Shown here one piece after another: positions 3,143 through 53,731 of a stretch of 64,000 nt of DNA. A program made the translations under genes and the position numbers. Position 1 is the stretch's first letter. Each line of letters opens with the position of its first letter. The stretch comes from Candidatus Sericytochromatia bacterium (GTDB taxonomy: Bacteria > Cyanobacteriota > Sericytochromatia > S15B-MN24 > JAQBPE01). The DNA lies in contig JAKFEW010000047.1 in NCBI GenBank assembly GCA_036675505.1, positions 8,821 through 72,820 of the forward strand, in the 5' to 3' direction. The notes beneath the pieces are model-generated. The model did no database searches. It was not told the DNA's origin and saw nothing but the letters and a program-made list of their open reading frames with translations.

Positions 3143-3320
3143 CTGAGACCTCCATTTCATATGCCCGGGGTTCGGGCATAGGCCGGGCATAGAAGATAGG
3201 TATATATGCGCAGTTTTACGAAACCCTGTCAACCTAGATAATTACTGCATATGCACTTTCTAGCAACCCTTCCCGGCATAGACTGAACTATACGATTCTA
3301 GGTGCGCCCACACACTTTTA

Positions 3321-5663: not shown

Positions 5664-6160
5664 CCACCACCAACCGCGCCCGCCACGAGCTCACGATCGT
5701 GTCGGACACCGAGATCCGCATCACGCGCGACTTCGACGCCCCGGCACGGCTCGTCTTCAAGGCCACCACCACGCCCGAATACATGAAGCGCTGGTATGGC
5801 TGCAGCGAGATGGAAATGACCACTTGCGAGATCGACCTGCGGCCCGGTGGCGCATTTCTCTGGGTGCTGCGCGACCAGGACGGCTCGGAGTACAAGTTCA
5901 AGGGCGAGTACCGTGAGGTCGACCCGCCCCACAAGGTGGTCTTCACCGAATCATTCCTGATGGGTGACACCTGGACCAACGGCGCGCTGAACACGGTCGC
6001 GATGAACGAGCATGACGGCAAGACCACGGTCACGATCGGGATCGTGTACGCCTCGAAGGCGGACCGCGACGGCCACCTGGGCGCAGGCATGGAGACCGGC
6101 ATGGCCCAGGCCCACACCCGCCTCGACGCACTGCTCGCCGAACTGGTCCAGGCCGCCTAG
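5660..6160 (+). CDS. SRPBCC-superfamily protein (Aha1/AHSA1-like)
   Basis: ELTIVSDTEIRITRDFDAPARLVFKATTTPEYMKRWYGCSEMEMTTCEIDLRPGGAF... matches the SRPBCC/AHSA1 family. Its ATG overlaps the ArsR stop (ATGA). The ArsR-SRPBCC pairing is recurrent. Confidence 0.75.
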   Translation: MTTTNRARHELTIVSDTEIRITRDFDAPARLVFKATTTPEYMKRWYGCSEMEMTTCEIDLRPGGAFLWVLRDQDGSEYKFKGEYREVDPPHKVVFTESFLMGDTWTNGALNTVAMNEHDGKTTVTIGIVYASKADRDGHLGAGMETGMAQAHTRLDALLAELVQAA

Positions 6161-6273
6161 GCGGCCTGGAGGGAATTTTACGGAAGGTTAACGCCAGCAA
6201 TGGCGACCGCGAGCCGACAACTCCTTCCAGTTGGAGTCGGTCGGCCGCGGGTGCGGCGGCCTGGGAGGTCACC

Positions 6274-7440
6274 GTGGGATCCTGGAGCTTGCCGCCCGCG
6301 TTCGCGGGCCTGGTGCGCATGTTCGCGGCGGAGCAGCCCGCTGCTTCGCCGCCGCCCGTGGCGGCGGAGCCTTCGCGCGTGGCCGCGGCGCCCGCCGTCT
6401 CGGAGGTGATGGGCCATGACCGCTGGGCGCCCACCGCCCGCCCGACCCCGAAGCGGCTTGCGCCTCCGCCGCCGCCCGGCGCGGCTGCGGGCCGCATCAA
6501 GCTCGACACGGTCTCCTCGCCCTTCGTGAAGGACCCGGCGTTCGCCAACGAGGGCGCGCCGATCGGCGGCAAGCGCTACATGGTCTTCGGCGATCTCACG
6601 CGCTTCTACCTCAAGGGCTTCGACGTCGCCGCCACGGCGGAAGGCAAGCCCGGCCTGCGGTTCGGCGCGGGCGAGGTCCCGATCGACGTGAAGGGCCTGC
6701 CGGCCGGCGTGAACGGCCTGTGGGCGCCCGAGGTCGTGGTGCGCGGCGATCGCGTCCTACTGCTCTATGCCGGCGGCGCGCAGGGCTTCGGCGGCATCGA
6801 CTGGCCGAGCTTCCGGCTGCGGCTCGCCGAGGTACCGCTCAGGGACTTCGAGGCGGCGGTGCGGGCGGGCAAGCCGGTGCCGTTCGAGGACAAGGGCGCG
6901 CTCTTCCCGGACCAGGCCACCTTCGGCGACGATCCGAGCTTCGCGATGATCGACCCCGCGCTCCACGTCGCGCCGGATGGCACGGCGCACGTCACCTACA
7001 CCGTGGTGAAGCACGGCATCCCCGGCCAGCGGCCCCACGAGGAGTTCGTGCGCTCGCGCCGGGTCGATCCGGAGAACCCGCTGGTGGCCCTCGGCCCCGA
7101 TACGCCGATGATCGACGGCCTGGCCGGTGGCCGCCACGACGGCGTGGCCGAGGCGCAGGACGTGGTCACGATCGATGGCAAGCAGGTGCTCTTCGTCTCC
7201 AGCCGCGCCGGCGACAAGGACCAGCGCGTCTACGCCGCCCCCGTGGACCCGGGCCTCGGGCGGGTGGCCGAGGCGGCGTTGAAGCCTGTGCTCGAGCCCG
7301 GTGGCGAGGATTGGAGCGCGAAGGCGGTCGGCTCGACCGGCGCCGCGGTGATCGACGGGCAGCTCTTCGTGGTGCACCAGGGCATGGGCGCGGACGGCAA
7401 GTTCTCGCTGGGGTTCCGGACGCTGGCGAAGCCCGTCTGA
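6274..7440 (+). CDS. Hypothetical protein, possibly a five-bladed beta-propeller (GH43/DUF377-like). Start uncertain.
   Basis: 388-aa high-GC3 ORF. It has weak resemblance to glycoside hydrolase family 43 beta-propellers (segments with D..G..Y..Y). The N-terminal ~80 aa are Pro/Ala-rich, so the true start may lie downstream. Confidence 0.4.
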   Translation: MGSWSLPPAFAGLVRMFAAEQPAASPPPVAAEPSRVAAAPAVSEVMGHDRWAPTARPTPKRLAPPPPPGAAAGRIKLDTVSSPFVKDPAFANEGAPIGGKRYMVFGDLTRFYLKGFDVAATAEGKPGLRFGAGEVPIDVKGLPAGVNGLWAPEVVVRGDRVLLLYAGGAQGFGGIDWPSFRLRLAEVPLRDFEAAVRAGKPVPFEDKGALFPDQATFGDDPSFAMIDPALHVAPDGTAHVTYTVVKHGIPGQRPHEEFVRSRRVDPENPLVALGPDTPMIDGLAGGRHDGVAEAQDVVTIDGKQVLFVSSRAGDKDQRVYAAPVDPGLGRVAEAALKPVLEPGGEDWSAKAVGSTGAAVIDGQLFVVHQGMGADGKFSLGFRTLAKPV

Positions 7441-10371: not shown

Positions 10372-10728
10372 ATGCTGATCACCAAGACCCCGCCGGCCAC
10401 CATCCCCACGGCGCCCGTGGCGAGCGAGGCGCCCGCGTCGATCGGCACCCCTACGATCAAAGTGTCGCCGGACTCGCTCTTCCTGACGCCGCCTGCGACC
10501 CCCCAGGCCCCGGCCAAAGAGCCGATGAACCGGTACGAGGCCGCGGTGAAGAAGGCGGCCGTGGTCGGCACGATCGTCGGCGGCATCGCCATCACGTCGG
10601 CCGTGTGCATCGCGCTCGCGAGCTCCATGGGCTCGGTCGGCATCGCCGTCCTCGGCGTCGGCCTCGCGGCCGACGCCCTGATGGGCTTGCTGGCCTGGCA
10701 CCTCGTCAAGACGCCGCTGACCAGGTAA
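10372..10728 (+). CDS. Small membrane protein (two predicted TM helices), hypothetical
   Basis: 118 aa with very strong GC3 bias in the + frame. AAGGAG lies upstream. The C-terminal half is hydrophobic (AAVVGTIVGGIAITSAVCIALA...IAVLGVGLAADALMGLLAW). I preferred it over the overlapping antisense ORF 10269..10709. Confidence 0.5.
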   Translation: MLITKTPPATIPTAPVASEAPASIGTPTIKVSPDSLFLTPPATPQAPAKEPMNRYEAAVKKAAVVGTIVGGIAITSAVCIALASSMGSVGIAVLGVGLAADALMGLLAWHLVKTPLTR

Positions 10729-10750
10729 GCCCGCGGGCCGGGCTGGGGCG

Positions 10751-12016
10751 CTAGAAGCGCCCGTGTTCGACGAAGCGCTCGAAGGCGTCGCAGGCCGCTG
10801 TCACGCCGTCCTCGGCACGGAGCAGCCGCCCCAGCGCCGCGGCCCGCGCCTGCATCGCTTCCGAGCTCACCGCCTCTTGGATCGCGGCGCCCAGACCCGC
10901 GGCCGTCAGCGTCTGCTGCGGCACCGGCCGCGGCCCGACGCCGAGCGCGTGGACGCGCCGGCCCCAGAAGGGCTGGTCCGCGAAGTAGGGCGCGATCACC
11001 GAGGGCACGCCCGCGCGCAGGCCGGCGGCGGTGGTGCCGGCGCCGCCGTGGTGCACCACCGCCGCACAGCGCGGGAAGAGCCAGTCGTGCGGCACGTCAT
11101 GCACGACCTTCACGTGGTCGGGCACGTCGCCAGCGCCGAGCCCGGCCCAGCCCGAAAGCACGATGCCGCGCCGGCCGGCGAGCCGCAGCGCTTCGTAGAC
11201 GTTGTGCGCGAGCCGGACCGGGTCGCGGCCGATCATGCTGCCGAAGCCCACGTAGACGGGCGGCTCGCCGGCCGCGAGGAAGGCGGTCAGGTCGGGCGGC
11301 GGCGTCCAGTCGGCCTGGGCGTCGAGGAACCAGAACCCGGTGACACTCGCGTGCGCCGGCCAGTCCGCAGGCCTGGGGAGCACGTGCGGGCTGAAGCCGT
11401 ACATGGCCGACATCACCGCCTGCCGGCCGAGGCTGAGGCCGCCCAACGGCAGCACCTGCATCCCCAGGCGCCGGCGCCACCGATTCAAGGGCGCCATGAG
11501 GCCGACCGAGGCGACATGGAGCACCGCCTGGTGGCTGAGCCAGTTGAGGTCGCCGGGCAAGCTGAGCCAGTCCGGCGAGATCGGGAAGGGGAACTCGCGG
11601 GTCGCCGTGAGCGGCACCGGCCCGGCCATCAGCGCGGGGATCCCGCGCGCCTCGGCGAAGTCGAGGGCGGGAAACGCCAACGGCGCATAAATCACCGCCT
11701 CGGCATCGGCGACGGCCGCGTGCACGGTCTCGAAGATCGGCTCGAGAAGCGGCACCATCAGCGTGCGAAAGTGCCTCACGAAGGCCACCGGGTTGGCGGC
11801 TGACTCGAGCCAGGCGAGCCCCGCGTCGCCCGCGAGCATGGCCTGCGGGTCGCCGGCGATCGCGCGGAAGCCCAGGCCGTGGCGGCGCACGAAGCCCTCG
11901 AAGGGGGCATGGGTCGCGAGCGTCACGGCGTGACCGCGGGCCGCGAGGCCGCGCCCGAGCGCGACATAGGGTTGGACGTCGCCGCGCGAGCCTGCGGTGA
12001 TGATCGCGATGCGCAT
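10751..12016 (-). CDS. Family-1 glycosyltransferase (MGT/UDP-glycosyltransferase, sterol/macrolide GT-like)
   Basis: The N-terminus reads MRIAIITAGSRGDVQPYVALGRGLAARGHAVTLATHAPF. The C-terminal UDP-sugar-binding region is HHGGAGTTAAGLRAGVPSVIAPYFADQPFW. AGGAGG lies before the ATG at 12016. Confidence 0.85.
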   Translation of the reverse strand: MRIAIITAGSRGDVQPYVALGRGLAARGHAVTLATHAPFEGFVRRHGLGFRAIAGDPQAMLAGDAGLAWLESAANPVAFVRHFRTLMVPLLEPIFETVHAAVADAEAVIYAPLAFPALDFAEARGIPALMAGPVPLTATREFPFPISPDWLSLPGDLNWLSHQAVLHVASVGLMAPLNRWRRRLGMQVLPLGGLSLGRQAVMSAMYGFSPHVLPRPADWPAHASVTGFWFLDAQADWTPPPDLTAFLAAGEPPVYVGFGSMIGRDPVRLAHNVYEALRLAGRRGIVLSGWAGLGAGDVPDHVKVVHDVPHDWLFPRCAAVVHHGGAGTTAAGLRAGVPSVIAPYFADQPFWGRRVHALGVGPRPVPQQTLTAAGLGAAIQEAVSSEAMQARAAALGRLLRAEDGVTAACDAFERFVEHGRF

Positions 12017-13034: not shown

Positions 13035-13223
13035 TTAGCGCTCCGTCTCTTCTTCGGTGCGCGCGAGCAATTCTTCAAGCTTGGCGCGCACCTCGGGCGG
13101 CACGTTCGCGCGCTCTTCGGCCGTGAGGCTCTCCCAGGTCTTCACCATGAGCGCCGCGCTCGCTTCGACCAGCTCGGCCATCGCGTCCAGCGTCTTCTCG
13201 CGCATCGTCTCGTCCATCTTCAA
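13035..13223 (-). CDS. Small hypothetical protein (62 aa) translationally coupled to lspA
   Basis: High GC3. Its ATG overlaps the lspA stop (ATGA at 13220-13223). Confidence 0.5.
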   Translation of the reverse strand: MKMDETMREKTLDAMAELVEASAALMVKTWESLTAEERANVPPEVRAKLEELLARTEEETER

Positions 13224-13720
13224 GCCTCCACTCGCACGCGTTTCTCATACCCTTCGCGGAGCGCCTGCAGGCCGAGCAGGCCGACGCCCAGGTTGATCGC
13301 GATGTCGGCGACGTTGAAGATCGGGAAGACGTTGGCGCCATACCAGCGCAGGTCGAACATGTCGCGCACCTCGCCGACGAAGGCGCGGTCCAGGCCGTTG
13401 CCGAGCGCGCCGCCCAGCAGCAGGCCGAGCCCTATGACGATCAGCGGCGCGACCGGGCGCGTGGCATGGAGGTAGACGGCGATGCCGAGCGATACCGTCA
13501 GCGAGATGGCCGCCAGCACGCCGACGTGGCCGTAGAACAGGCTCCAGGCGGCGCCCTTGTTCAGCGCGGGCGTGAGGTGGAAGAAGCCGTCGATCAGCGG
13601 GCGCGAGTGGCCGACGGCGATCGCCGTGACGATCGCGAGCTTCGCGAGCTGGTCGAGCAGCAAGGCCGCGAGCGCGGTCAGGTAGAACGTGAGCGTCCGG
13701 TACAGGCGGTCGTGGGCCAC
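13220..13720 (-). CDS. lspA: Lipoprotein signal peptidase II
   Basis: The conserved SPase II blocks are present (...LTPALNKGAAWSLF..., ...FPIFNVADIAINLGVGLL...) and the protein has four TM segments. Confidence 0.9.
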   Translation of the reverse strand: MAHDRLYRTLTFYLTALAALLLDQLAKLAIVTAIAVGHSRPLIDGFFHLTPALNKGAAWSLFYGHVGVLAAISLTVSLGIAVYLHATRPVAPLIVIGLGLLLGGALGNGLDRAFVGEVRDMFDLRWYGANVFPIFNVADIAINLGVGLLGLQALREGYEKRVRVEA

Positions 13721-15719: not shown

Positions 15720-16223
15720 GTGCGACTGCTCAACGTCCGCGCGCGCCGACACGACCGACTCAAGCTCAGCGTTGGCTGGCCCTGGGACCAGCTCGGGCTG
15801 GGCGTGGCGCTCGTGCTGGTCGGGCTCGGGCTCATGTGGCCGGCGCTCGCCACCGATTTCGTCGCCTTCCTGAGCCGCCTGATCCTGGGGGGCGTCGTCG
15901 CCTGCGGCGGCATGCTGATGCTCTACTTCGCGGCGGAGGTGATGAGCGAGGCGGTGGTCTTCGACCGTCGCACGGGCGATTTCCTGACGATCGCGCTGGC
16001 GCGCGGCCGGCGGCGGGTGACGCGCCGGCCGATCCACATGCTGCGGCAGGTGACGGTCCGGCCGAACGGCCTTGCGCCCGGCGGCTACGGGCTGGTCTTC
16101 GAGTTCCGTGGCGAGCCCGCGATCACCTTCCCGCTCGACGCGAACGCGCAGGACCCGGGCGAGGGCGAGGCGATCGTGCGGCAGGTGTGGGCGTTCATCC
16201 AGCGAAAGGGTGCCGCGGGTTAG
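15720..16223 (+). CDS. Hypothetical membrane protein
   Basis: Two hydrophobic helices (LGVALVLVGLGLMWPALA, ILGGVVACGGMLMLYFAA). A GTG start abuts the prfC stop. Confidence 0.45.
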   Translation: MRLLNVRARRHDRLKLSVGWPWDQLGLGVALVLVGLGLMWPALATDFVAFLSRLILGGVVACGGMLMLYFAAEVMSEAVVFDRRTGDFLTIALARGRRRVTRRPIHMLRQVTVRPNGLAPGGYGLVFEFRGEPAITFPLDANAQDPGEGEAIVRQVWAFIQRKGAAG

Positions 16224-16858
16224 CCCACGTCGCCGAAGCGGCGGACCATCAGCTGGCCGAGCAGCCGGTCGAGCTCGGCGCGGTCGAGCGCGAAATCGCG
16301 GTTCAGGTCGCCCGCCTTCACCCAGGCCGCGATCGGCTCGCTGTCGAGGTAGAGCGACGCGCGCACGTGCCCGGGCAGCCAGCCCACGAACAGGCCGACC
16401 TCGTCGGCCGTCAGCTTCTCCGACGCATCCAGGTCCACCCGCAAGAACCCGTCCGCGATGTCCACCGCCGCGAACGGCGCGTCCTTGAAGCGCACCAGCG
16501 CGAAGGCCGTCCACTCGTTTTCGACGATGCGGCCGTCGCCGTTCTTGTCCGCCGTGGCGTGCGGCGTCGCGCCGCGCAGGATCGCGGCCTCGTCGTAGGG
16601 CCACTCGGCGTTGGTCACCGCGCCGTCGGCGTCCGCGTCGATCACGCGGAACATGAGCGCCGCGTTCGCGGGCAGGGGCGAGGCCGGCTTCTTCGTCACC
16701 AGCTTGCCGGCGTCGCGCTTGCCGCCGCCGGCCTTGCCGCCGCTGAGCTTGCCCGCGGCCGCGAAGCCGCCCGCCGCGCGGTCCACCGCCGAGAGCGGCG
16801 CGGCTCCGCAGGCGGTGAGCAAAAAGGTGAGGCCGAGGACGAGGCAGGTCTTGTGCAT
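16220..16858 (-). CDS. EF-hand calcium-binding lipoprotein
   Basis: Lipobox LLTACGAA. Two EF-hand loops (DADADGAVTNAEW, DKNGDGRIVENEW). Confidence 0.7.
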   Translation of the reverse strand: MHKTCLVLGLTFLLTACGAAPLSAVDRAAGGFAAAGKLSGGKAGGGKRDAGKLVTKKPASPLPANAALMFRVIDADADGAVTNAEWPYDEAAILRGATPHATADKNGDGRIVENEWTAFALVRFKDAPFAAVDIADGFLRVDLDASEKLTADEVGLFVGWLPGHVRASLYLDSEPIAAWVKAGDLNRDFALDRAELDRLLGQLMVRRFGDVG

Positions 16859-17021
16859 ACGGGGTTATCGCCCGCACTGGCACGCCACGCGCTCAAGGAC
16901 TGATTAAGGTGAGGCAAAACTTCAGCTGGTTCGGCTGTAACAAAAACGGCTTGACGACCGTTACACGGATCACATAGAATCATAACCTGGACTTAACCTT
17001 AATTGAACAGGGAGAGAACGC

Positions 17022-18329
17022 ATGCGGACGACGACGACGCGGCGCAAGGTGATCGGGATCGGCCTCACGGCCGCCCTCGCGGCCACGATGGCCGGCTGTG
17101 GCGCGGGACCCCGCATGGCCGGCAGCGTCGCCGCCGGCGACCTGGTGACCCAGGGCGCGCGCGATCCCGGCCGCGACGAGGGGCCCACCCAGTCCCTGTT
17201 GCAGCCGGCGCATGCGCTGCGCGGCCCGAACCCCGTGCGCAGCGGCAACTTCGCGCGCCTGCACGCCTCGGCGTCGCAGACCCTGCCCGCGCTGCGCGCG
17301 CTGATCGGCTCGGCGAAGCGGTCGCTCTGGTTCGAGACCTTCAACTTCGGCAACGATTCGATGGGCCAGCAGATTTACCCGCTGCTGATCGAGAAGGCCA
17401 GGGCCGGCGTCGAGGTGAAGGTGATCATGGACTACGTCGGCAGCCGCTTCCTGCCGAAGCACGGCGAGATGGTCCGCGCGATGCGTCAGGCCGGCGTCGA
17501 GGTGCGGATGTACAAGCCGCGCTGGATCGTCAAGGACGACAAGCAGCGCGGCATCAACATCCAGCACCGCAAGGTCTACCTCGCGGACGGCGAGCGCGGC
17601 CTCACCGGCGGCGTGAACCTCATGCAGCCCTTCGACACCCACACCGAAGACGTGCTGGTGGAGTACCGCGGCCCGATCATCCGCGACCTCGCGGCCGAGT
17701 ACGCGTTCGACTGGAAGGCGAGCGGCGGCGATACGCTGGCGCTGCCGCCCCAGGCGCCGCCGCAGCCGGATGGCGACGTGGAGGCCCGCGTGGTCGTGAC
17801 CAGCCCGGCCGAAGGCCGCTTCGAGGGCCGCGACGCCATCTACGCCGGCCTCGCCGCCGCCCGGCGCCAGATCGAGATCGCGAACCAGTATCTCTGGGAC
17901 GACGGCATCATCAAGCGCCTGCACGCGGCGCTCGCGCGCGGCGTGAAGGTGCGCGTGATCGTGCCCGGCGACGAGGACCACGGGCCGTTCAAGGCGCTGC
18001 ACGGCGAGGAGCTCAAGAAGCTCACTGAGCACGGCGCGGAGGCGCGGTTGTTCACCGGCACGCACGCCGAGGCGCACCTGCACACGAAGTTCTTCGGCGC
18101 GGACGACGCCTGGGTGGCGATCGGCTCGACCAACGGCGACACGCGCGCGCTGATGGACAACCAGGAGCTCGACACGATCATCACGGACCCCTGGCTCGCC
18201 AAGGATTTCCGCGACCGCATGTTCCAGCGCCTCTGGACGAGCGAGTCGAAGCCGTTCGTCTACAAGCCGGGCGGCCCGATGACGAAGCCGTTCCGGACCC
18301 TGCTCGAGATCATCGACTACTACCTGTAG
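17022..18329 (+). CDS. Phospholipase D-family (HKD) lipoprotein, paralog A
   Basis: Lipobox LAATMAGCGAG. Two HKD motifs (NIQHRKVYLADGERGLTGGVNL, HLHTKFFGADDAWVAIGSTNGDTRAL). Confidence 0.85.
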   Translation: MRTTTTRRKVIGIGLTAALAATMAGCGAGPRMAGSVAAGDLVTQGARDPGRDEGPTQSLLQPAHALRGPNPVRSGNFARLHASASQTLPALRALIGSAKRSLWFETFNFGNDSMGQQIYPLLIEKARAGVEVKVIMDYVGSRFLPKHGEMVRAMRQAGVEVRMYKPRWIVKDDKQRGINIQHRKVYLADGERGLTGGVNLMQPFDTHTEDVLVEYRGPIIRDLAAEYAFDWKASGGDTLALPPQAPPQPDGDVEARVVVTSPAEGRFEGRDAIYAGLAAARRQIEIANQYLWDDGIIKRLHAALARGVKVRVIVPGDEDHGPFKALHGEELKKLTEHGAEARLFTGTHAEAHLHTKFFGADDAWVAIGSTNGDTRALMDNQELDTIITDPWLAKDFRDRMFQRLWTSESKPFVYKPGGPMTKPFRTLLEIIDYYL

Positions 18330-18333
18330 CCAG

Positions 18334-19701
18334 TTAGAACAGGAAGTCCACCGACTCCAGGATACTGAACAGCCACTTCTTCCAGAAGGGCAGCGCCTCG
18401 ATGGTCGCGAGCGCGATCGGCTTCGCCGTCTTCCAGTCGCGCTCGAGCTGCTCGTCGATGAACTTCTTCGCCGCGGCCTTGTCGTAGATGATGCTGTTCA
18501 GCTCGTGGTTCTGCGACAGCGTGCGCGCGTCGCCGTTCGCCGAGCCGATCGAGAGCACCTTGCCGTCGACGACCATCGCCTTGAAGTGCGAGAAGCTCTC
18601 GACCTGCTCGTTGCCGACCTTGAAGTTGCTCAGGAAGCGGACCTCGATGCCGGCCGCGAGCAGCTGGCGGGCCGACTCCATGTTGAGGTTGCCGTACAGG
18701 AAGCCCGGGATCCCGCGCTCGCCCTTGCCGGGCATCATCACCTTGATCGAGAGCTTGGGGTTGCGCTTCTTGGCCTTGATCAGCTCGTCGATCATCGCGT
18801 CGTCCGAGAAGTACGGGTAAACGATGCGGATCTCCGAGGTGGCGTAGCGGATCAGCTTGAGCTGGGTCTCGCGCAGCTCGGTCTTCTTGGCGTGCGGGTC
18901 GGTCACGACCGACTGCACCCAGGCCGCGCCGCCCTTGGCGGGCTTCACTTGCGGGATGTGGGCGGGCACCTTGCCGCCGGCCTTGACCCAGTTCTTGAGG
19001 AACTCGCGCTGGATGCGGGCGGTCTCGTCGCCCTCGACCGTGTACATCAGGTCGTGCCAGGCCTTCTCGGTGCCCTGGCCGGGGTTGAAGAAGGTGGGCT
19101 TGAGGTACTCGTCGCCGATGTTGCGGCCGCCCGAGAGGAACTTCGTGCCGTCCTGGATGAAGAGCTTGCGGTGGGTGATCGGCGTGGCGCCCGTGGCGGT
19201 GGGGTCGACGCTGCCGCGGTTGAACTCGCGGACCTCGATCCCGTTGTCGCGCAGGAACTTCACGATCTCCGTGTCCTTGGTCGGGTTCGTGGCGTCGCGC
19301 AGGCCGGACCAGTCGATCAGGACCTTCATGTCGAAGGGCTCGCCCTTCTCGTCGGCGAGGCGCTTGCGGTCGATCAGGGCCTGGGCGATCTCGCGGCCGG
19401 ACTCGTCGTTGTGCCAGATGAAGATCTCGAGCCAGAAGGCTTCCTTCGAGGTCTTGATCGCGTCGAGGATGGCGAGGCGCGATTCGTCGGGCGAGACGTG
19501 CAGGGTGACCTTGTTGTGGAAGGTGGGCTGGTTGAGGGCCAGGCGCTCGACGCCGAGCGTGCCGTTGCGCGCGAGCACCCGGTTGGCCGTCACGTCCTTG
19601 GGGGGCGCGATCTTGGCCTCCAGCTTGGGCAGCCGGCGGTCCTGGAACTTCAAGATCTTTTCGCGAATGTTCGTCGGCATCGTCAGATCGGCTCTCAACA
19701 A
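18334..19701 (-). CDS. Phospholipase D-family (HKD) protein, divergent paralog B (no obvious signal peptide)
   Basis: Two HKD motifs (THRKLFIQDGTKFLSGGRNIGDEY, SHFKAMVVDGKVLSIGSANGDARTL). The protein is Lys-rich and its codon usage has lower GC than the flanking genes. Confidence 0.85.
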   Translation of the reverse strand: MLRADLTMPTNIREKILKFQDRRLPKLEAKIAPPKDVTANRVLARNGTLGVERLALNQPTFHNKVTLHVSPDESRLAILDAIKTSKEAFWLEIFIWHNDESGREIAQALIDRKRLADEKGEPFDMKVLIDWSGLRDATNPTKDTEIVKFLRDNGIEVREFNRGSVDPTATGATPITHRKLFIQDGTKFLSGGRNIGDEYLKPTFFNPGQGTEKAWHDLMYTVEGDETARIQREFLKNWVKAGGKVPAHIPQVKPAKGGAAWVQSVVTDPHAKKTELRETQLKLIRYATSEIRIVYPYFSDDAMIDELIKAKKRNPKLSIKVMMPGKGERGIPGFLYGNLNMESARQLLAAGIEVRFLSNFKVGNEQVESFSHFKAMVVDGKVLSIGSANGDARTLSQNHELNSIIYDKAAAKKFIDEQLERDWKTAKPIALATIEALPFWKKWLFSILESVDFLF

Positions 19702-19902
19702 GGCGGCAGGCGCCTGTGGATCTTGTCCCGCATGATCGGGCCGAATCTTCTTATGCTGGGGTTAACCGGGGGGCGTCGAAAGGTTAAGGAGTTGAGTTTT
19801 TCGATACAGCCTGTTGACGAATCGCCTAACAAGGTTTAGGATAGGTTAAGGGGATAACTTGGAGTTAACCACGGCGCACTGGCTCGGGAGGTTGGACGTT
19901 CG

Positions 19903-21201
19903 ATGAAGAGCGGAACCCGGATCGTCTTCACGGTTGCGATGGCAGCGCTGCTCGGCGCGTGCACCACCTTGTCGACTCCGCCCAGCGCCGGCACGAAGGC
20001 CGGCGCCCTCCAGGCCCTCGACGCCGTCGACGGCCCCGAGCCGCGCCTCGACCAGTACCCGACGCTGACGATCGACGTGCCGGCGCGGCCCACGCGCACC
20101 GCGCCGCGGCCCACCGGCGGCAACGTCGTCACGCCGTACGTGTCGCCCGCCGAGACCCTCCCGGCGCTGCTCGCGCTGATCGACGGCGCGAAGTCGTCGA
20201 TCTACCTCGAGACCTTCAACTTCGGCAGCCAGTCCTATGGCGAGCGGCTCGTGCCGCGCCTGATCGCGAAGGCCCGCGCGGGCGTCGAGGTGAAGGTGGT
20301 CATGGACTACTGCGGCAGCCGCTTCCTGCCGGGCCACAAGGAGATGCTGCGCGACCTGCGCGCGGCCGGCGTGGACGTGCGCCGCTACCTGCCGCGCGGG
20401 ATCCGCAAGGACGACCGGCAGATCGGCATCAACATCCAGCACCGCAAGGTCTACCTCGCGGACGGCGAGCGCGCGCTGGTGGGCGGCGTGAACCTCATGA
20501 AGGGGTTCGACACGATTCACCAGGACATCCTCGTGGCGTTCAGCGGGCCGGTGGTGGCGGACCTCTACAAGGAGTTCGCCCACGACTTCAAGGCCGCCGG
20601 CGGCAAAGCCGCGGTGCGCCTCCCGGCGCCGGTCTCGGCGGGCGGCTCGGCCACCACGCAGGTCTGCGTGACCAGCCCGGCCGAGGGCCGCTTCGAGGGC
20701 CGCGACATGATCTATGCGGGCATCGACGCCGCCAGCCGCTCGATCGTGATCGAGAACCAGTACCTCTGGGACGATCGCCTGATCGGGAAGCTCTACGCGG
20801 CGCTCGAGCGCGGCGTGCGGGTGCGCGTGATGGTGCCCGGCGAGGAAGCCAAAAAGGTGTGGCAGCACGTGCACGCCGAGGAGCTCAAGCGCCTCGTCGA
20901 TCGCGGCGCCGAAGCGCGCGTCTACCACGGCGATCCCTTCGAGGCCCACCTGCACGTGAAGTACTACTCGGTGGACGACCGCTGGACGGCGATCGGCTCG
21001 ACCAACGGCGACACGCGCGCGCTGCTCGACAACCAGGAAGTCCAGATCGCCGTCACCGACCCCGGATTCGCGGTGGAGCTGCGTCAGCGGCTCTTCGAGC
21101 GCGACTGGAACGAGCGCTCGCAGCCGTTCGTTTACAAGCCGGGGACCTTCATCAGCCGCCCCTTCCGGAGCCTGATGGAGATCATCGACTACTACTTGTA
21201 G
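19903..21201 (+). CDS. Phospholipase D-family (HKD) lipoprotein, paralog C (close paralog of A)
   Basis: Lipobox LLGACTT. HKD motifs (NIQHRKVYLADGERALVGGVNL, HLHVKYYSVDDRWTAIGSTNGDTRAL). It is collinear with paralog A over its whole length. Confidence 0.85.
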   Translation: MKSGTRIVFTVAMAALLGACTTLSTPPSAGTKAGALQALDAVDGPEPRLDQYPTLTIDVPARPTRTAPRPTGGNVVTPYVSPAETLPALLALIDGAKSSIYLETFNFGSQSYGERLVPRLIAKARAGVEVKVVMDYCGSRFLPGHKEMLRDLRAAGVDVRRYLPRGIRKDDRQIGINIQHRKVYLADGERALVGGVNLMKGFDTIHQDILVAFSGPVVADLYKEFAHDFKAAGGKAAVRLPAPVSAGGSATTQVCVTSPAEGRFEGRDMIYAGIDAASRSIVIENQYLWDDRLIGKLYAALERGVRVRVMVPGEEAKKVWQHVHAEELKRLVDRGAEARVYHGDPFEAHLHVKYYSVDDRWTAIGSTNGDTRALLDNQEVQIAVTDPGFAVELRQRLFERDWNERSQPFVYKPGTFISRPFRSLMEIIDYYL

Positions 21202-21301: not shown

Positions 21302-21670
21302 TCAGGCCACGACCGGCGAGAGGTGCTTGCCGATCACGCGGAAGAGGCGGTCATCGGCGAGCGGGTTGGCGATGAAGTCCAGCGCGCCGGCCCGCTTGGC
21401 CTCGAGCACGGGCGTGTGGTGGTGCACAGGGCCGGTCAGGATCACGCCGGCGCAGGGATCGGCCACGCGCAGCGCCTTGAGCGCCGTCACGCCGTCCATG
21501 TCGGGCAGGTGGTGGTGCATGACCACCACGTCGGGGTCGGTCTGGCCGTAGATGGCGATCGCCGCCATCCCCGAGCCGACCTCGACCACCTGGTAGCCGT
21601 GCGCCTCGAGGGCGCGCGCCAACAGGCGGCGTTTGAAGACCCCAGGCTCGACGAGCAGCACGGTCCGCAT
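21302..21670 (-). CDS. Single-domain response-regulator receiver (CheY-like)
   Basis: MRTVLLVEPGVFKRRLLARALEAHGYQVVEVGSGMAAIAIY...DVVVMHHHLPDMDGVTALKAL has the receiver-domain fold. There is no output domain. Confidence 0.7.
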   Translation of the reverse strand: MRTVLLVEPGVFKRRLLARALEAHGYQVVEVGSGMAAIAIYGQTDPDVVVMHHHLPDMDGVTALKALRVADPCAGVILTGPVHHHTPVLEAKRAGALDFIANPLADDRLFRVIGKHLSPVVA

Positions 21671-21812: not shown

Positions 21813-22826
21813 CTACGCGGCGGTAGCGGTGGCCTCGTCGTCGTCGTCGACGCCCGTCGCGTCATCGTCGTCGTCGGCCTCGTCGTCTTCACCGTCATCG
21901 TACGGATCGGCCGAGGGCAAAGGCGCGGGGTTGTGGGCCGGGGCGATCTTCGAGACCTCGACGTTGACCTTGCCGTCCGCGTCGCGGGTGCCGGTGATCT
22001 CGGTGCGGTTGCCGTCGCGGTGGGTGATGTAGCCGTCGATCTTCTCGGTGCCGTCCGCATTGACCGTCTTGGTCCACTCGGCGTACTCCTGGCGGCCGTC
22101 CTTGTAGATCACGGTGCGCTTGGTGACGACCTGGTAGGCGCCGTTGTCGCCGACCAGCGTGCGGATGCGCTCGAGGTCGATGCGCAGGTCCTTGTTGTTC
22201 TGGCCGGTCTGGTGGACCGACAGCGTCTGGGTCGTGCCCTCGTCGTCGACGACGCGGCGGGTCTCGACTTCCCAGGTGCCCTTGTTGGTGGAGGTCCAGG
22301 TCGTGACGATTTCCTTGCCGCCGCCGCCGAGGTCGTTGATCGTGGTGACGGGCGCCGTCCGGTTCTTGCGGATGCTGTCGATCTCGCCTTCGTGGAGCTC
22401 GAACGCGAGCTCGCGCTTGTGCTTGAGGGCGGCCTTCACTTCACGCTTGAGCTTGAAGCGCTGCCAGGCGCGCTTGAGCTTGTCCTTGAGGTCCTGGAAC
22501 CAGCCCTGCAGCTGGTAGGTCGGGCCGTCGTCGGCGAGCAGCTCGAGCGCTTCGAGCTCGGCGTCGGCCGTGATCACGTCGGCGGTGACTTCCTGCGCGG
22601 CGACGGCGAGCGCGGCGGGGGCGGCGCCGGCCGTCACCACGACGGTCGGGGCGGGACCCTTGAAGCCGGGGACCGTGCGAATCAGCGGGGCGGCCGCGGG
22701 CGCCAGCGGAGCCGGGGCGACGGGCACCGAGACCGACGTCGCGAGACGGGCCGAGGGCGCGGACGTGCAGCCTGCCAGCAGGGCGGCGGCGAGGGTCACG
22801 AGGATCGCGGTACGGCGAGCGGCCAT
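21813..22826 (-). CDS. Hypothetical lipoprotein with an acidic C-terminal tail
   Basis: Lipobox LLAGCTSA. GAAGGAG RBS. The C-terminus is a D/E-rich tract. Confidence 0.55.
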   Translation of the reverse strand: MAARRTAILVTLAAALLAGCTSAPSARLATSVSVPVAPAPLAPAAAPLIRTVPGFKGPAPTVVVTAGAAPAALAVAAQEVTADVITADAELEALELLADDGPTYQLQGWFQDLKDKLKRAWQRFKLKREVKAALKHKRELAFELHEGEIDSIRKNRTAPVTTINDLGGGGKEIVTTWTSTNKGTWEVETRRVVDDEGTTQTLSVHQTGQNNKDLRIDLERIRTLVGDNGAYQVVTKRTVIYKDGRQEYAEWTKTVNADGTEKIDGYITHRDGNRTEITGTRDADGKVNVEVSKIAPAHNPAPLPSADPYDDGEDDEADDDDDATGVDDDDEATATAA

Positions 22827-22991
22827 CGGTCTATCTCCTTCGGTGGGGGCTTTGTACTTGAATGAGCTGTTAGCTCTGCACGGGATCTTTGTCGCCAGGC
22901 TTTTGGTGATCCTCGATAAAGACGAGGTAAAGGCGTGTTGAAAACTGGCGAAAGAAGTTTTCCCAGAGTGAAGGTGCTCCGGGAAACCGCG

Positions 22992-24167
22992 CTACTTGCC
23001 CTTGCCCTTGCCCTTGTCGCCCGACGCGTCGCCCGCAGGGCCATCGTCGTCCCCGTCGTCGTCGTCGCCGTCGTCGTCGCCCGAGCCGCTGCCGTGCCCA
23101 GCGCCGCCCGACGGGGTGTCACCCGCCGGCGCGTTGCCGGCACCCGCGCCACTGCTGCCACCGCCTGCGGCGCCGCTGCCACTCTGGTCGCCGCCGCCGT
23201 GTTCGGTCGGGGCGGCCGGCGTGGCGGGCTGCGCCGGTTGCGCGGCGTTGCCCGGCTCAGCAGGCTGCGCGGGCGTCGCGGGTTGGGCCGGCGTCGCGCC
23301 GTTGTCGCGCGGGGCTTCCTGCGGCGCCGCGGCGGCCGCCTTCTTCGCTTCATCGGCAGCCGCCTGCTTCTCCACTTCGGCGGCCTGCTTCGCCTCGGCG
23401 ACGGCGGCCAGGGCGGCCTGGGCGGCTTCGGGCCGCTTCTCGAGTGCCTTCTCGAGCGCCTTGTCGGCCGAGCCGCCCGGCTTGAGATCGATCTGGATCT
23501 CGCCGGCGTCGGAGGCGGCCTTTACGGCGTCTTCGAGGGCCTTCAGCTTGTCGGGCTTGATCTGGGCGAGCTCCTTGGGATCCTTGAGCTTCGCGCGCAC
23601 GCCGTCGGAGACCGCCGTCGAGACCGGGTCGACGCGCAGCTCTTCGGCCGCGTTGGCCTTCATCAGGCGGCCGAGCCGGAAGCCCTTGCCGCGAATCTCG
23701 ATGAAGGCGACGGTTCCTTCGGGCACGCCCGCGAGCGAGAATTTGCCCAGGGTGTCGGTCTTGGCCGGCGCCACGCCGGGGAAGGGCCGGCCGTCTGCGG
23801 CCAAAAGCACGACCTCGGCATCCGGCACAGGCGCGAGCGCCTCGGCGGCGAGCAGGCCGAATCGCGGGACGCTCAGCGAGCCGCCGCCATTCGCGACGAT
23901 CGAGCTGCCGCCGTTCGTGACGATCGAGCCGCCGCCATTCGCGACGATCGAGCCGCCGCCGTTCGCAATCACCGAGCCGCCGCCGTTTGCGATGACGCTC
24001 GCGGGGGCCTGGGCCACGCCGCCAATCATGATCTTGGGGGCGATCCGGGCCGCGGGGCCACTGACGCGGTTTTCTACGAGGCCGCCGTCGGGTTTGGTCA
24101 GGCTCGGCGGCTGACACGCGGTCAGCACCAGGGCGAGCGGAAGAGCCAACGGCCAGGCACGCAACAT
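22992..24167 (-). CDS. Lipoprotein with ANGGGS octapeptide repeats and a carboxypeptidase-regulatory-like domain (paralog of 7456-10200 and 36629-38296)
   Basis: Lipobox LALVLTAC. VIANGGGSVIANGGGSIVANGGGSIVTNGGSSIVANGGGS repeats. AEVVLLAADGRPFPGVAPAKTDTLGKFSLAGVPEGTVAFIEIRGKG matches CarbopepD_reg. The C-terminus has an Ala/Lys/Glu coiled-coil-like region and a Gly/Asp-rich tail. I took the start at the second ATG (24167), which has a GAAAGGGGG RBS. Confidence 0.7.
   Translation of the reverse strand: MLRAWPLALPLALVLTACQPPSLTKPDGGLVENRVSGPAARIAPKIMIGGVAQAPASVIANGGGSVIANGGGSIVANGGGSIVTNGGSSIVANGGGSLSVPRFGLLAAEALAPVPDAEVVLLAADGRPFPGVAPAKTDTLGKFSLAGVPEGTVAFIEIRGKGFRLGRLMKANAAEELRVDPVSTAVSDGVRAKLKDPKELAQIKPDKLKALEDAVKAASDAGEIQIDLKPGGSADKALEKALEKRPEAAQAALAAVAEAKQAAEVEKQAAADEAKKAAAAAPQEAPRDNGATPAQPATPAQPAEPGNAAQPAQPATPAAPTEHGGGDQSGSGAAGGGSSGAGAGNAPAGDTPSGGAGHGSGSGDDDGDDDDGDDDGPAGDASGDKGKGKGK
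23877..23996. repeat. 24-bp tandem repeat x5 encoding the ANGGGS repeats
   Basis: The units gagccgccgccattcgcgacgatc / gagctgccgccgttcgtgacgatc / gagccgccgccattcgcgacgatc / gagccgccgccgttcgcaatcacc / gagccgccgccgtttgcgatgacg are read directly in the sequence. Confidence 0.8.
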
Positions 24168-24252
24168 CAGGATCCCCCTTTCCATACGGAAGTCCTATAC
24201 CCGAACCCTTGCCTGGTTGACACAGCGGGGCGCGGTCCGTCCGGTCATCGCC

Positions 24253-25248
24253 TCAATGCCCGTGGTGGTGGTCGTGGTGATGATCGTGGCCGTCGTCGTG
24301 GTGGTGGTGGTCGTGCCCGTGATGGGGTGGCTGCACCATGCCGAGGTTGCAGGCCGGCGAATCCGGCGAGCAGTGCTCCGCCTCGGCCTGGATCGTGGTG
24401 TGGATGATGCCGTACTTGTCGGCGAGCAGCTGGGTGCAGGCGGCGACGACGCCGACGCTGCGCGGCACGAGTTCGTCCTCGATGAGGACGTGGCACGAGA
24501 GGCTCGGCATGTTGCGGGCGATGCTCCAGACGTGCAGGTCGTGGACCTCGCGAACGCCCGCGATCGCCTTCAAGTCGCCCACCAGGCCCTCGACGTCGAG
24601 GTCCGGCGGCGCGCCTTCCATGAGGATCGCGATGCTCTCATCCACGACCTGCCAGGCCCCGTAGGCGATGAAGACGGCGATCGCCACCGACAGCAGCGGG
24701 TCGACCGCGTGCCAGCCCGTCACAGCGATCACGATCGCGCCGACGATCACGCCGCCGGACGCCGCCGCGTCGCCCATCACGTGCAGGAAAGCGCTGCGCA
24801 CGTTGAGGTTGTGCTCGGACTCGCCCTTGAGGCCCAGGCCGATCGCGAGGTTGATCACCAGGCCGATCGCCGCGGCGGCGAGCATCGTCATCGGCTGCAC
24901 GGCGACCGGTGCGCCCAGGCGCCCGTACGCCTCGTAGCCGATCCACAAGGCGATCAAGATCAGGCTCACGGCGTTCGCGAGCGCGGCGAGGATGCCGGTG
25001 CGGTGGTAACCGAAGGTGCGCTTCCGATCCGCCGGGCGCGTGGCTTGCCAGGTGGCGTACCACGAGAGGCCGAGGGCCGCGATGTCGGTGACGACATGGC
25101 CGGCGTCGGCGAGCAGGGCCAGGGACTTCGAGAGCCAGCCACCCACCAGCAGCACGGCGAGAACGCCGAAAGACAGGAAGAACGCGATCGCGAGCTTCCG
25201 CCCCGTCAGGTGGGCGTGGTGGTGATGGTGGTGGGCGTGGCCGATCAC
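24253..25248 (-). CDS. czcD: Cation diffusion facilitator (CDF) family metal exporter, CzcD-like, with His-rich termini
   Basis: The TM core follows the CDF signature (FFLSFGVLAVLLVGGWLSKSLALLADAGHVVTDIAAL...HVMGDAAASGGVIVGAIVI). Both termini are His-rich (HAHHHHHHAH at the N-terminus, HHGHDHHHHDDGHDHHHDHHHGH at the C-terminus). The GTG start overlaps the stop of the upstream small ORF (GTGA). Confidence 0.85.
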   Translation of the reverse strand: MIGHAHHHHHHAHLTGRKLAIAFFLSFGVLAVLLVGGWLSKSLALLADAGHVVTDIAALGLSWYATWQATRPADRKRTFGYHRTGILAALANAVSLILIALWIGYEAYGRLGAPVAVQPMTMLAAAAIGLVINLAIGLGLKGESEHNLNVRSAFLHVMGDAAASGGVIVGAIVIAVTGWHAVDPLLSVAIAVFIAYGAWQVVDESIAILMEGAPPDLDVEGLVGDLKAIAGVREVHDLHVWSIARNMPSLSCHVLIEDELVPRSVGVVAACTQLLADKYGIIHTTIQAEAEHCSPDSPACNLGMVQPPHHGHDHHHHDDGHDHHHDHHHGH

Positions 25249-25448
25249 GCTTCCGGGGTGATCTTCGCGATGCGCTCGCGCACGCTCTGGATCGTGCCCA
25301 GCGGCGCCGGCGTAGCGGGCACGTCGGCCGTAGGCGCCTGCGCCGCGGGCTCGATCGGGCCCAGCAAGGGCCCGGTCGCCACCTTCTTGGCGCGGCGGGC
25401 GACCGCGCGCGAGAGCTTGAGCTGATCGTTTGGCTGCTTGTCGGCCAT
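25245..25448 (-). CDS. Small hypothetical protein (67 aa) translationally coupled to the CDF exporter
   Basis: GAAGGAGG lies 6 nt before the ATG. High GC3. Its stop overlaps the CDF start. Confidence 0.55.
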   Translation of the reverse strand: MADKQPNDQLKLSRAVARRAKKVATGPLLGPIEPAAQAPTADVPATPAPLGTIQSVRERIAKITPEA

Positions 25449-25882
25449 GCGGGCCTCCTTCGGGCGGGCAGGGATCGCCCTCAGTATACCCCGCGTCGTG
25501 GCCGCCGGTGACGCGGCTCACGGCCCGCTAGGCGGCTTCCGGCGGACCATACCGGTGGGGAAAGCCCCCGCGATCCGGGTATACGGATCACGACGCCGAA
25601 GCCCCCAGCGGGAAAAGGCGCCGAGCGGGGGGCCGACCACCCGAGCGGGTGGAAGGTCCCCAGGCGAGGACCCCTCCGTATGATGTCTCTGGAAGCCCTG
25701 GCGATGGTACTGTGCGCCGCGATCGCGGTTTACCTGGCCTTCACCAAATGCCCCTGTAGCGTCGTTTCCGACGACTTGCAAGCGAGCTACGATCCATCTG
25801 AGCAGCCGTCCCGCTAGAGCGGGTCTGGACGCGCCCCGCGCGCTCATGTTAGGATGACCAGACTCCCGGCGATGCCGGGCGC

Positions 25883-25954
25883 GCCCCGATGGTCTAGTGG
25901 TTAGGACACCACCCTTTCAAGGTGGTAACACGGGTTCAATTCCCGTTCGGGGTA
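25883..25954 (+). tRNA. tRNA-Glu (anticodon TTC)
   Basis: Cloverleaf folded by hand. The acceptor pairs gccccga with tcggggt (G1-U72 wobble). The D-arm is gtct/agtggttaggac. The anticodon stem is ccacc/ggtgg and the loop is cTTTCaa. The T-arm is acggg/ttcaatt/cccgt. The discriminator is A and there is no encoded CCA. It resembles the E. coli tRNA-Glu architecture. Confidence 0.85.
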
Positions 25955-53653: not shown

Positions 53654-53731
53654 GCTATCGTTACCGCAAGTTCGACCGCCCGTCGGGGGATGGATCGGGT
53701 GGGGACGGGTGTCCCTGGAGTGGAGTCGGTG

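Follow-up and report, generated by a model that had tools for sequence, protein, structure and literature searches.

Three adjacent genes for proteins of the phospholipase D (PLD, or HKD) superfamily, referred to here as PLD-A, PLD-B and PLD-C, are found in a 64,000 bp stretch (the window; GC content 69%) of contig JAKFEW010000047.1 from a Candidatus Sericytochromatia bacterium. We see about an even chance that these genes form a phosphate-responsive module for the remodelling of envelope phospholipids that would work in two compartments. Sequence comparisons indicate that A, B and C are catalytically intact phosphatidyl transferases or hydrolases that resemble cardiolipin synthases (Cls). Together with two further lipoprotein genes and a gene for an EEP-family phosphoesterase, the PLD genes probably make up one putative regulon of the phosphate-responsive PhoB/SphR type. 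The shared regulon is inferred from the match of a common upstream motif to a known regulator site, from the statistics of that match and from its conservation across loci. The three PLD genes are as follows.

17022-18329, plus strand: PLD-A, a Cls-like lipoprotein of 435 amino acids (aa) with the lipidated residue Cys26 and two HKD motifs
18334-19680, minus strand: PLD-B, 448 aa, with two HKD motifs and without a signal peptide or transmembrane (TM) segment
19903-21201, plus strand: PLD-C, a 432 aa lipoprotein (Cys20) with two HKD motifs

Each protein contains two HxKx4D motifs (at residues 182 and 354 in A, 170 and 365 in B, counted from the ATG, and 180 and 351 in C), downstream G(G/S)xN and two Pfam PLDc_2 domains (99-133 bits against a cut-off of 27, with 133 bits for A), the features that define the PLD (HKD) superfamily. 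Over their full length, A and C are 55.7% identical, and B is ~28% identical to each of them. The lipoboxes of A (TMAG followed by C26) and C (LLGA followed by C20) are each preceded by a charged n-region and a hydrophobic h-region, and the N-terminus of B has no hydrophobic segment. B is also richer in lysine (9.0%, versus 4.6% in A and 4.2% in C), lower in whole-gene GC content (0.646 versus 0.70 for A and C) and basic, with an isoelectric point of 9.3 and a net charge of +9. The median isoelectric point is 8.9 for the B family and 6.5 for the A/C family. An earlier reading of this DNA from its letters alone (the sequence-only reading) had described three distinct HKD proteins at one locus, two of them lipoproteins and the third Lys-rich, of lower GC content and lacking a signal peptide, and this description stands. 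The same reading placed B tail-to-tail between A and C. That is correct on the side of A, as A and B are convergent with 4 bp between their stop codons, but not on the side of C, as B and C are head-to-head and diverge across a 222 bp intergenic region. It also gave 18334-19701 for B. This open reading frame is present and extends to a TTG at 19701, but all B orthologues begin MPT(N/V)I, and the likely start is therefore the ATG at 19680 (MPTNIREKILK...). No terminator-like hairpin was seen at the A/B 3′ junction (18327-18336). The A and B transcripts probably overlap at their 3′ ends.

The AlphaFold2 model of A (mean predicted local distance difference test score 86.7, predicted TM score 0.83) consists of a signal helix (residues 7-24), a disordered tether (27-44) and a confident, two-lobed PLD domain. 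A and C are predicted to act beyond the cytoplasmic membrane, with a flexible linker of ~30 residues joining them to either the inner or the outer membrane. As LspA and a TolC/AcrB/HlyD efflux system are encoded in the window, the cell is expected to have a two-membrane envelope and to process lipoproteins. B would be a peripheral enzyme at the cytoplasmic face of the anionic inner membrane, a location suggested by its lack of a signal peptide and its basic charge. In Foldseek searches, the A model matched the PLD superfamily broadly (Streptomyces PLD, PLD1-3, F13 and PssA; TM score ~0.6), with an E-value of ~1e-21 against PLD structures.

The cluster of one B-type and two lipoprotein-type PLD genes was found again in four other genomes (loci L001, L002, L092 and L094, the last from ‘Cyanobacteria bacterium RYN_339’), and the arrangement is therefore not due to chance. 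L001 has the same gene order as the window, namely RF3, EF-hand, A, B, C, receiver, 337 aa protein and CDF. L002, L092 and L094 retain the three PLD genes with prfC, the gene for the 337 aa protein and the CDF gene, and have local insertions that include TrkA_N, a VTT/pyridine-nucleotide oxidoreductase gene and TerD. B is 84% identical to its orthologue in L001, 65% in L002, 65% in L092 and 57% in L094. Among more distant loci, L003 has a B-family gene beside an A/C-type gene, L085 has two B-family genes in tandem and L086 has one on its own.

The suggestion in the sequence-only reading that B was probably acquired separately was not borne out. The GC content at third codon positions (GC3) is 0.978 in B, 0.968 in A and 0.958 in C, and the GC deficit of B is confined to codon positions 1 and 2, so that its lower GC content reflects amino acid composition. 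Horizontal acquisition of B was rejected in view of this host-like GC3 (0.98) and of its place in the cluster, which is kept in five genomes down to 57% identity; the family is also confined to the lineage that carries A/C. Vertical inheritance of a lineage-specific cluster is the simplest account, given the GC3 of 0.96-0.98 in all three genes, the recurrence of the cluster in L001, L002, L092 and L094, and the bootstrap support for the A and C orthogroups (see below). GC3 along the PLD cluster gave no sign of membership of a mobile element.

These data also bear on whether B could be a horizontally acquired toxin, effector or defence module, i.e. a secreted PLD effector or a defence nuclease with its neighbours acting as immunity proteins. 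This is very improbable and already largely refuted. B does lack a signal peptide, as do the PLD effectors of type VI secretion systems (T6SS), is compositionally distinct in whole-gene GC content and has weak matches to DrmC of the DISARM system. However, the DrmC matches reach at most 70 bits in NCBIfam (cut-off 133) and at most 55 bits in PADLOC, where they cover one HKD half only, and no DrmA, DrmB or methylase partner genes were found in the 64 kb window. No Tle5/Tli5 context (VgrG/T6SS genes or a Sel1-repeat immunity gene) was found among the annotated genes of the window and five related loci, and A and C are themselves enzymes rather than immunity proteins. The host-like GC3 of B and its synteny in five genomes argue in the same direction. 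The predatory lipase set and the toxin/immunity-like arrangement that had been offered earlier are thus left with no secretion-system, immunity or defence partners in the 64 kb, where PADLOC gave only weak single-domain matches to DrmC, and membrane-lipid remodelling is the best fit among the three functions proposed at that time.

The case for common regulation rests on the upstream regions of the genes, in which the following promoters and arrays of short direct repeats (units) were found.

16890-16919, minus strand: array upstream of the EF-hand lipoprotein gene, 20.7 bits (26.3 bits for the L001 orthologue)
16951-16980, plus strand: sigma-70-like promoter of A, TTGACG-N18-TAGAAT
16981-17010, plus strand: array in the A leader, CATAACCT-gga-CTTAACCT-taa-TTGAACAG, 12-41 nt upstream of the ATG, 24.4 bits
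19748-19788, minus strand: B-proximal units in 11-bp phase, CTTAACCT ... GTTAACCC-cag-CATAAGAA
19814-19842, plus strand: sigma-70-like promoter of C, TTGACG-N17-TAGGAT
19832-19850, minus strand: two-unit element on the sense strand of B, CTTAACCT-atc-CTAAACCT, overlapping the -10 of C
19853-19871, plus strand: two-unit element in the C leader, GATAACTT-gga-GTTAACCA
22903-22954, minus strand: five-unit array upstream of the 337 aa lipoprotein gene, 77-128 nt from the start codon
53627-53678, plus strand: array of 4-5 units upstream of the EEP-family gene, overlapping the end of the preceding amine-oxidase gene

The Pho box recognized by cyanobacterial SphR (PhoB) consists of at least three tandem units of CTTAACCT, or PyTTAAPyPy(T/A), with 3-bp linkers (PMC1906773, PMC4195498). 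The motif shared by the arrays listed above is made up of 8-bp units in 11-bp phase and matches this Pho box in unit, linkers and phase. The window was scanned for three-unit arrays with a position weight matrix built from 18 published SphR sites. The best array in the window is upstream of the 337 aa lipoprotein gene (22914-22943, minus strand, 24.8 bits), and the EEP array scores 20.3 bits at 53627-53656 (plus strand). Relative to these arrays at 20-25 bits, shuffled windows (n=100) gave a maximum of 17.3 bits and a mean of 8.9 bits. When the upstream regions of 35 genes were ranked by their best sense-strand score, the genes for the 337 aa lipoprotein, A, the EF-hand lipoprotein and the EEP protein came first, followed by B (14.4 bits) and C (11.3 bits), with the next region at 8.8 bits. 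As these intergenic regions are locally AT-rich, the local background and dinucleotide shuffles of each region were also used. For A, EF-hand, 337 aa and EEP, the score was reached in 0/2000 local shuffles and peaked sharply at period 11. For two-unit arrays, local shuffles gave p=0.0005 for B and p=0.002 for C. Hence, at least three tandem units are present upstream of A and of the EF-hand, 337 aa and EEP genes, and in the window B and C have two-unit elements only.

Shorter shared sequences were also found. ATAACYTGGASTTAACC is common to the A and C leaders and occurs twice in the 64 kb versus 0.03 expected, both copies lying just downstream of the sigma-70-like promoters. GGTTAAG/CTTAACC occurs three times in the window, in each case in one of the two PLD intergenic regions, and the TTGACGA promoter element is invariant across six orthologous upstream regions. 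A riboswitch or leader-RNA explanation of the shared motif was considered and dropped, as no Rfam family was found in the leaders.

The best arrays in L001, L002, L092 and L094 are again upstream of the orthologues of the PLD and 337 aa lipoprotein genes. In that order of loci, the scores are 22.3, 20.2, 31.2 and 25.2 bits for the 337 aa lipoprotein gene, 15.6, 17.5, 19.8 and 22.1 bits for A, and 15.6, 10.4, 25.8/18.5 and 13.7-20.4 bits for B. The C orthologue in L001 has a three-unit array of 25.8 bits. The array in the A leader is conserved in L001, L002 and L094, and the B sense-strand element at 19832-19850 is conserved in L001, L002 and L092. In L085 and L086, where the neighbourhoods are unrelated, the best array of the whole locus is directly upstream of the B-family gene. 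The arrays directly upstream of the B-family genes in L002, L085 and L086 end ...TTAAGAA and resemble the B-proximal units in the window.

The relationship of the three proteins to known enzymes was examined via their families, profile matches and phylogeny. The B family includes 58 relatives at ≥42% identity, all from metagenomes or metagenome-assembled genomes (MAGs), and is separated by a gap from ordinary cardiolipin synthases at ~28%. The A family includes ~98 relatives at ≥40%, likewise from metagenomes or MAGs, and the next matches are at 31-34%. Look-ups by exact protein sequence of A itself (P0117) and of P0033 gave no recorded entry. Family members that carry a label are mostly from Candidatus Sericytochromatia or ‘Cyanobacteria bacterium RYN_339’. 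Two proteins labelled ‘Bacteroidota bacterium’, one from each family (P0048, MGE5707713.1, and P0156, MGE5707727.1), are apparently from one MAG. Either the contig was mis-binned or carries the wrong label, or both families occur, rarely, outside Sericytochromatia. Of the 98 A/C-family members, 94 carry a lipobox, the exceptions being fragments or having variant boxes, and none of the 58 B-family members has a signal peptide or TM segment. The C-terminal tails of the two families, PFRxLLExIDYYL in A/C and LEAxDFL(L/F) in B, are related. Tails in other groups are ...SPLL (ClsA-type), ...LPIEWLL (ClsC/ClsO-type) and ...LLRSQL (ClsB-like).

Matches of A, B and C to Cls profiles run over the full length of the proteins. 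The best NCBIfam model for A and C is ClsB (NF008427; 121 and 119 bits, cut-off 281), to which B scores 63 bits, and the best for B is the generic bacterial Cls model (122 bits, cut-off 290). ClsA-type models (TIGR04265/PRK12452) gave 108-122 bits versus 290, and the ClsA-type two-TM N-terminus is absent from A, B and C. The PssA model (NF006946, cut-off 314) gave 47.6 bits for B and 16 bits for C, and PssA structures in the PDB were matched with E-values of only ~4e-4. Nuc and NucT are dimers of a single-HKD protein of ~170 aa, whereas the proteins here have two HKD motifs and >430 aa, and scores to the NucT models were ≤32 bits versus cut-offs of 211-351. With the E. coli K-12 proteins as pairwise references, A and C are closest to ClsB (28% identity, E-value ~1e-25), followed by ClsA (23%) and ClsC (21-22%, ~1e-8), and PssA is barely detectable. 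B matches ClsB at 1e-13 and ClsA at 1e-14.

A neighbour-joining tree (88 sequences, 385 columns, 100 bootstraps) was built, with outgroup proteins of the ClsA and ClsC/ClsO types taken from 80 species genomes. A scan of species genomes with the B-family profile gave only matches of 22-36% identity, with patterns generic to all Cls, and no orthologous loci. Bootstrap support was 100% for the A/C clade, 97% for the B clade and 99% for the ClsC/ClsO-type clade, which takes in proteobacterial lipoproteins and a Neisseria locus. A, B and C are all placed outside the ClsA clade, and A/C grouped with ClsC/ClsO in 0/100 and with ClsB-like proteins in 0/100 bootstraps. On this tree and the profile scores, A/C and B are assigned to two lineage-restricted clades outside the ClsA, ClsB, ClsC/ClsO, PssA and Nuc groups. 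The two are weakly indicated to be sister clades (55% bootstrap support). The A and C orthogroups separate with 95 and 100% support, respectively, and the A/C duplication must therefore be older than the divergence of the genomes that carry both. The sequence-only reading had held that the genes would be ordinary housekeeping paralogues if all three fell in the cardiolipin-synthase clade with synteny conserved in relatives. Synteny is indeed conserved and all three belong to a broad Cls-like radiation, but none is in a characterized cardiolipin-synthase clade or above a curated cut-off.

The closest functional parallel for A and C is ClsO of Acinetobacter baumannii, an outer-membrane lipoprotein that is exposed at the surface, carries two HKD motifs and makes cardiolipin (Herrera et al., PNAS 2026, PMC12846801). 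ClsO is most similar to ClsC, its homologues were found and tested in Proteobacteria only, and proteins of this type had earlier been misread as secreted phospholipases (PMC12846801). A and C share with ClsO a lipoprotein signal peptide, a flexible tether and a Cls-like domain with two HKD motifs, in a two-membrane organism. The combination used to recognize ClsO-type proteins (PMC12846801), a lipoprotein signal and two HKD motifs, is found in A and C and not in B. By analogy, A and C could make or remodel phospholipids outside the cytoplasm without energy input. However, their 21-22% identity to E. coli ClsC and their absence from the ClsC/ClsO clade in all bootstraps do not indicate orthology. 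They also differ from ClsO in the C-terminal tail (PFRxLLExIDYYL rather than LPIEWLL), in their occurrence in Cyanobacteriota-related Sericytochromatia rather than Proteobacteria, and in the setting, which here includes two lipoprotein paralogues, a sister family lacking a signal peptide and Pho-box-like sites. The lipoprotein Cls-like A and C therefore look like an independent invention relative to ClsO. E. coli ClsB (YbhO) is the characterized protein closest to A/C in sequence and, like B, lacks TM helices, but it is cytoplasmic, whereas A and C are lipoproteins that fall far below the ClsB cut-off.

In the mechanism that we propose, each enzyme would form a phosphatidyl-histidine intermediate on one HKD motif. 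The phosphatidyl group could be passed to the alcohol of another lipid, e.g. converting phosphatidylglycerol (PG) to cardiolipin, the reaction of ClsO on the surface of Acinetobacter, or alternatively to water, yielding phosphatidic acid. Low phosphate would switch A and C either on or off, and the envelope phospholipids of both compartments would be adjusted when the phosphate supply changes. With respect to regulation, the locus resembles the cyanobacterial SphS-SphR (PhoR-PhoB) system in the unit, the 3-bp linkers, the ≥3 tandem units and the placement upstream of genes for exported phosphoester-handling proteins. It differs in that the known SphR regulon holds pst, sphX, phoA and nucH, and PLD/Cls genes are not reported there, and in that the arrays at A and C are downstream of the -10. 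In our literature search, no description of PLD or Cls genes as members of a cyanobacterial Pho regulon was found, nor anything on lipid enzymes of Sericytochromatia. Plant PLD-zeta and bacterial PlcP provide the concept of phosphate-regulated enzymes that cleave phospholipids to free membrane phosphorus (PMC9460063), but neither is orthologous in sequence to A, B or C, and PlcP is not an HKD enzyme.

Several observations weigh against a phosphate-responsive module. For three-unit arrays, the p values are only 0.013 for B and 0.07 for C, and B lacks the period-11 peak. Pho-box-like arrays are missing from L003 and L091, and L094 has four arrays, of which two lie on the opposite strand. The arrays at A and C start 1-11 bp past the predicted -10, which is atypical for activation of the PhoB type; a position just downstream of a strong sigma-70-like promoter is repressor-like, i.e. 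more typical of repression. The pst/pho genes (pstS, phoA and phoX) that could have validated the matrix were sought in the 64 kb window and none was found. The only OmpR-family regulator in the window (47914-48615) is ambiguous and below the cut-offs as PhoB/SphR, and the assignment of a PAS histidine kinase (34087-35469) as PhoR is likewise ambiguous and below cut-offs. In addition, conversion of two PG to cardiolipin saves no phosphorus, which leaves the physiological logic of phosphate control in question. As to the enzymes themselves, none of A, B and C reaches any curated Cls cut-off (best 121 versus 281 bits). Sequence and fold searches of the PDB gave only matches generic to the PLD superfamily and do not separate synthase from hydrolase; there is no solved structure of a cardiolipin synthase for comparison.

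A rather unlikely alternative is that A, B and C are ordinary housekeeping paralogues, i.e. cardiolipin or other phospholipid synthases expressed constitutively in different compartments. The motif would then belong to another OmpR-family regulator, which could answer envelope stress, Ca2+ or metals, or would be promoter architecture inherited through duplication. This would be consistent with Cls models as the best profile matches, with synteny kept beside the housekeeping gene prfC, with the strong sigma-70-like promoters at A and C that include the invariant TTGACGA, and with the recurrence of Ca2+-binding (EF-hand, TerD) and CDF metal-efflux genes at the locus. Moreover, no bona fide Pho gene of this lineage that could validate the matrix was found in the window. 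However, the fit of the motif to the SphR unit CTTAACCT, the 3-bp linkers and the 11-bp phase goes beyond AT-richness, and the motif is also found upstream of B-family genes in unrelated contexts (L085 and L086). Duplication alone is insufficient to explain it, because the non-paralogous EF-hand, 337 aa and EEP genes carry the motif too. The shared Pho-box-like sites thus argue against plain housekeeping paralogues. Should the proteins be plain cardiolipin synthases under another regulator, the locus would represent only a lineage-specific expansion of an annotated family.

Some A/C-family members are fusion proteins of 600-620 aa (P0176, P0179 and P0194; locus L091, 8001-9863) that consist of a lipoprotein signal, a dual-specificity (DSP)-type protein tyrosine phosphatase (PTP) domain (PTP-NADK/Y_phosphatase2-like) and two PLD domains. 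The DSP phosphatase PTPMT1 dephosphorylates phosphatidylglycerophosphate to PG in cardiolipin synthesis. Because of these fusions, lipid head-group chemistry is favoured over a nucleic acid substrate. The fusion would tether a phosphatase and a Cls-like enzyme together outside the cytoplasm, according to the predicted domains, but is also compatible with the pairing of a diesterase and a monoesterase for phosphate release.

The latter possibility leads to a serious alternative, although we judge it unlikely, in which A and C are hydrolases that scavenge phosphate. Here, A and C would be induced as part of the Pho response and, in the periplasm or at the cell surface, would hydrolyse phospholipids from outside the cell or other phosphodiesters, nucleic acids perhaps among them, after which phosphatases would release the phosphate. 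B would recycle the cell's own phospholipids, a role modelled on plant PLD-zeta in phosphate starvation. The Pho-box-like arrays common to the PLD genes and the EEP phosphoesterase gene are in keeping with this, and the PTP-type fusions would pair diesterase with monoesterase. Other bacteria induce phospholipases under phosphate limitation (PMC11828411), plant PLDs recycle phosphate (PMC9460063), and the HKD fold also underlies the nucleases PLD3/4 and Nuc. Set against these points, the full-length similarity of A, B and C is to Cls and not to hydrolytic PLDs or Nuc (NucT ≤32 bits, cut-offs >200). Lipoprotein PLDs formerly read as secreted lipases have since been identified as cardiolipin synthases (PMC12846801). 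The PTP-fused members have neither Pho arrays nor Pho genes beside them; in L091, no phosphate gene and no array of significant score was found. The position of the arrays at A and C is repression-like.

With remodelling as the preferred function, a fuller account, which we regard as possible but doubtful, is that Sericytochromatia independently evolved extracytoplasmic phospholipid synthesis or remodelling, with A and C as analogues of ClsO, B as their cytoplasmic sister, and the system wired to PhoB/SphR together with accessory lipoproteins. Candidates for accessory proteins are the 337 aa lipoprotein, the EF-hand lipoprotein and the pseudo-receiver described below. The genes themselves are not new, as public MAGs annotate these proteins generically as ‘phosphatidylserine/phosphatidylglycerophosphate/cardiolipin synthase family’. 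Three features appear to be new, as judged from sequence: the occurrence outside Proteobacteria of Cls-like lipoproteins whose phylogenetic origin is separate from that of ClsO, the conserved grouping of their genes with those of a sister family lacking a signal peptide, and a putative shared Pho-box-like regulon. That a lipoprotein enzyme can make a major phospholipid at the outer membrane was not described until 2026, and then in Proteobacteria only (PMC12846801). If the account is true, extracytoplasmic lipid chemistry would be a recurrent solution of two-membrane bacteria and not a proteobacterial peculiarity, and phosphate availability would jointly reset which phospholipids make up the inner and the outer membrane. 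The lineage that carries A/C is itself non-photosynthetic and belongs to the sister class of the photosynthetic cyanobacteria. In this uncultured lineage, the Pho-box-like sites may connect the remodelling of envelope phospholipids to phosphate sensing.

The other genes relevant to the locus are listed below.

13220-13720, minus strand: lspA (lipoprotein signal peptidase II), 3.3 kb upstream of the cluster
16220-16858, minus strand: EF-hand (Ca2+-binding) lipoprotein, divergent from A, N-terminus ...LLTAC, Pfam EF-hand
21302-21670, minus strand: stand-alone pseudo-receiver of 122 aa, Pfam Response_reg, aligned to E. coli CheY
21813-22826, minus strand: 337 aa lipoprotein, function not assigned, in a lineage-restricted family of 34 proteins
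22992-24185, minus strand: 397 aa lipoprotein with tandem (V/I)(I/V)ANGGGS heptad-like repeats and a CarboxypepD_reg-like domain
24253-25521: CDF cation-efflux gene, His-rich termini in the product, syntenic in 5/5 genomes
53690-54784, plus strand: EEP-family phosphoesterase, Pfam Exo_endo_phos, 32 kb from the PLD cluster

Downstream of lspA, the cluster encodes at least five predicted lipoproteins (EF-hand, A, C, 337 aa and 397 aa). The CheY-like receiver that the sequence-only reading noted at 21302 is a Response_reg gene, but it is on the minus strand and its product has neither the phospho-acceptor Asp nor the conserved Lys. In the alignment with CheY, E/P stand in place of D12/D13, His in place of D57 and Asn in place of K109; in the L001 counterpart (6030-6398), D57 is Ser and K109 is Gln. 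The RYN_339 counterpart is 150 aa long and retains the DD pair. The receiver gene is beside the 337 aa lipoprotein gene in three of the five loci. The 337 aa lipoprotein gene is syntenic with the PLD genes in 5/5 genomes, and the structure of its product has only generic beta-meander similarity to outer-membrane barrels and JlpA. The 397 aa lipoprotein also includes an Ala/Pro/Gln-rich low-complexity region, a poly-Asp/Gly stretch and a KGKGKGK C-terminus, and a comparable CarboxypepD_reg-like hypothetical protein is encoded at this position in RYN_339.

The EEP gene may belong to the same putative regulon as the PLD cluster. A pairing like that of E. coli ClsB with YbhP, which is encoded in the clsB operon, was considered for the EEP protein and rejected, as its similarity to YbhP is at superfamily level only. 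A tyrosine-recombinase (phage-type) integrase gene is near the start of the window (1901-3232, minus strand), and a single tRNA gene (25883-25954, plus strand) is downstream of the CDF gene.

The EF-hand lipoprotein gene is syntenic in L001 only, and in L094 (RYN_339) two TerD genes (10711-11890) are found where the window has it. Ca2+-binding proteins are thus recurrent in the PLD locus (EF-hand here and in L001, TerD in RYN_339), and divalent cations could conceivably be linked to cardiolipin or other anionic lipids.

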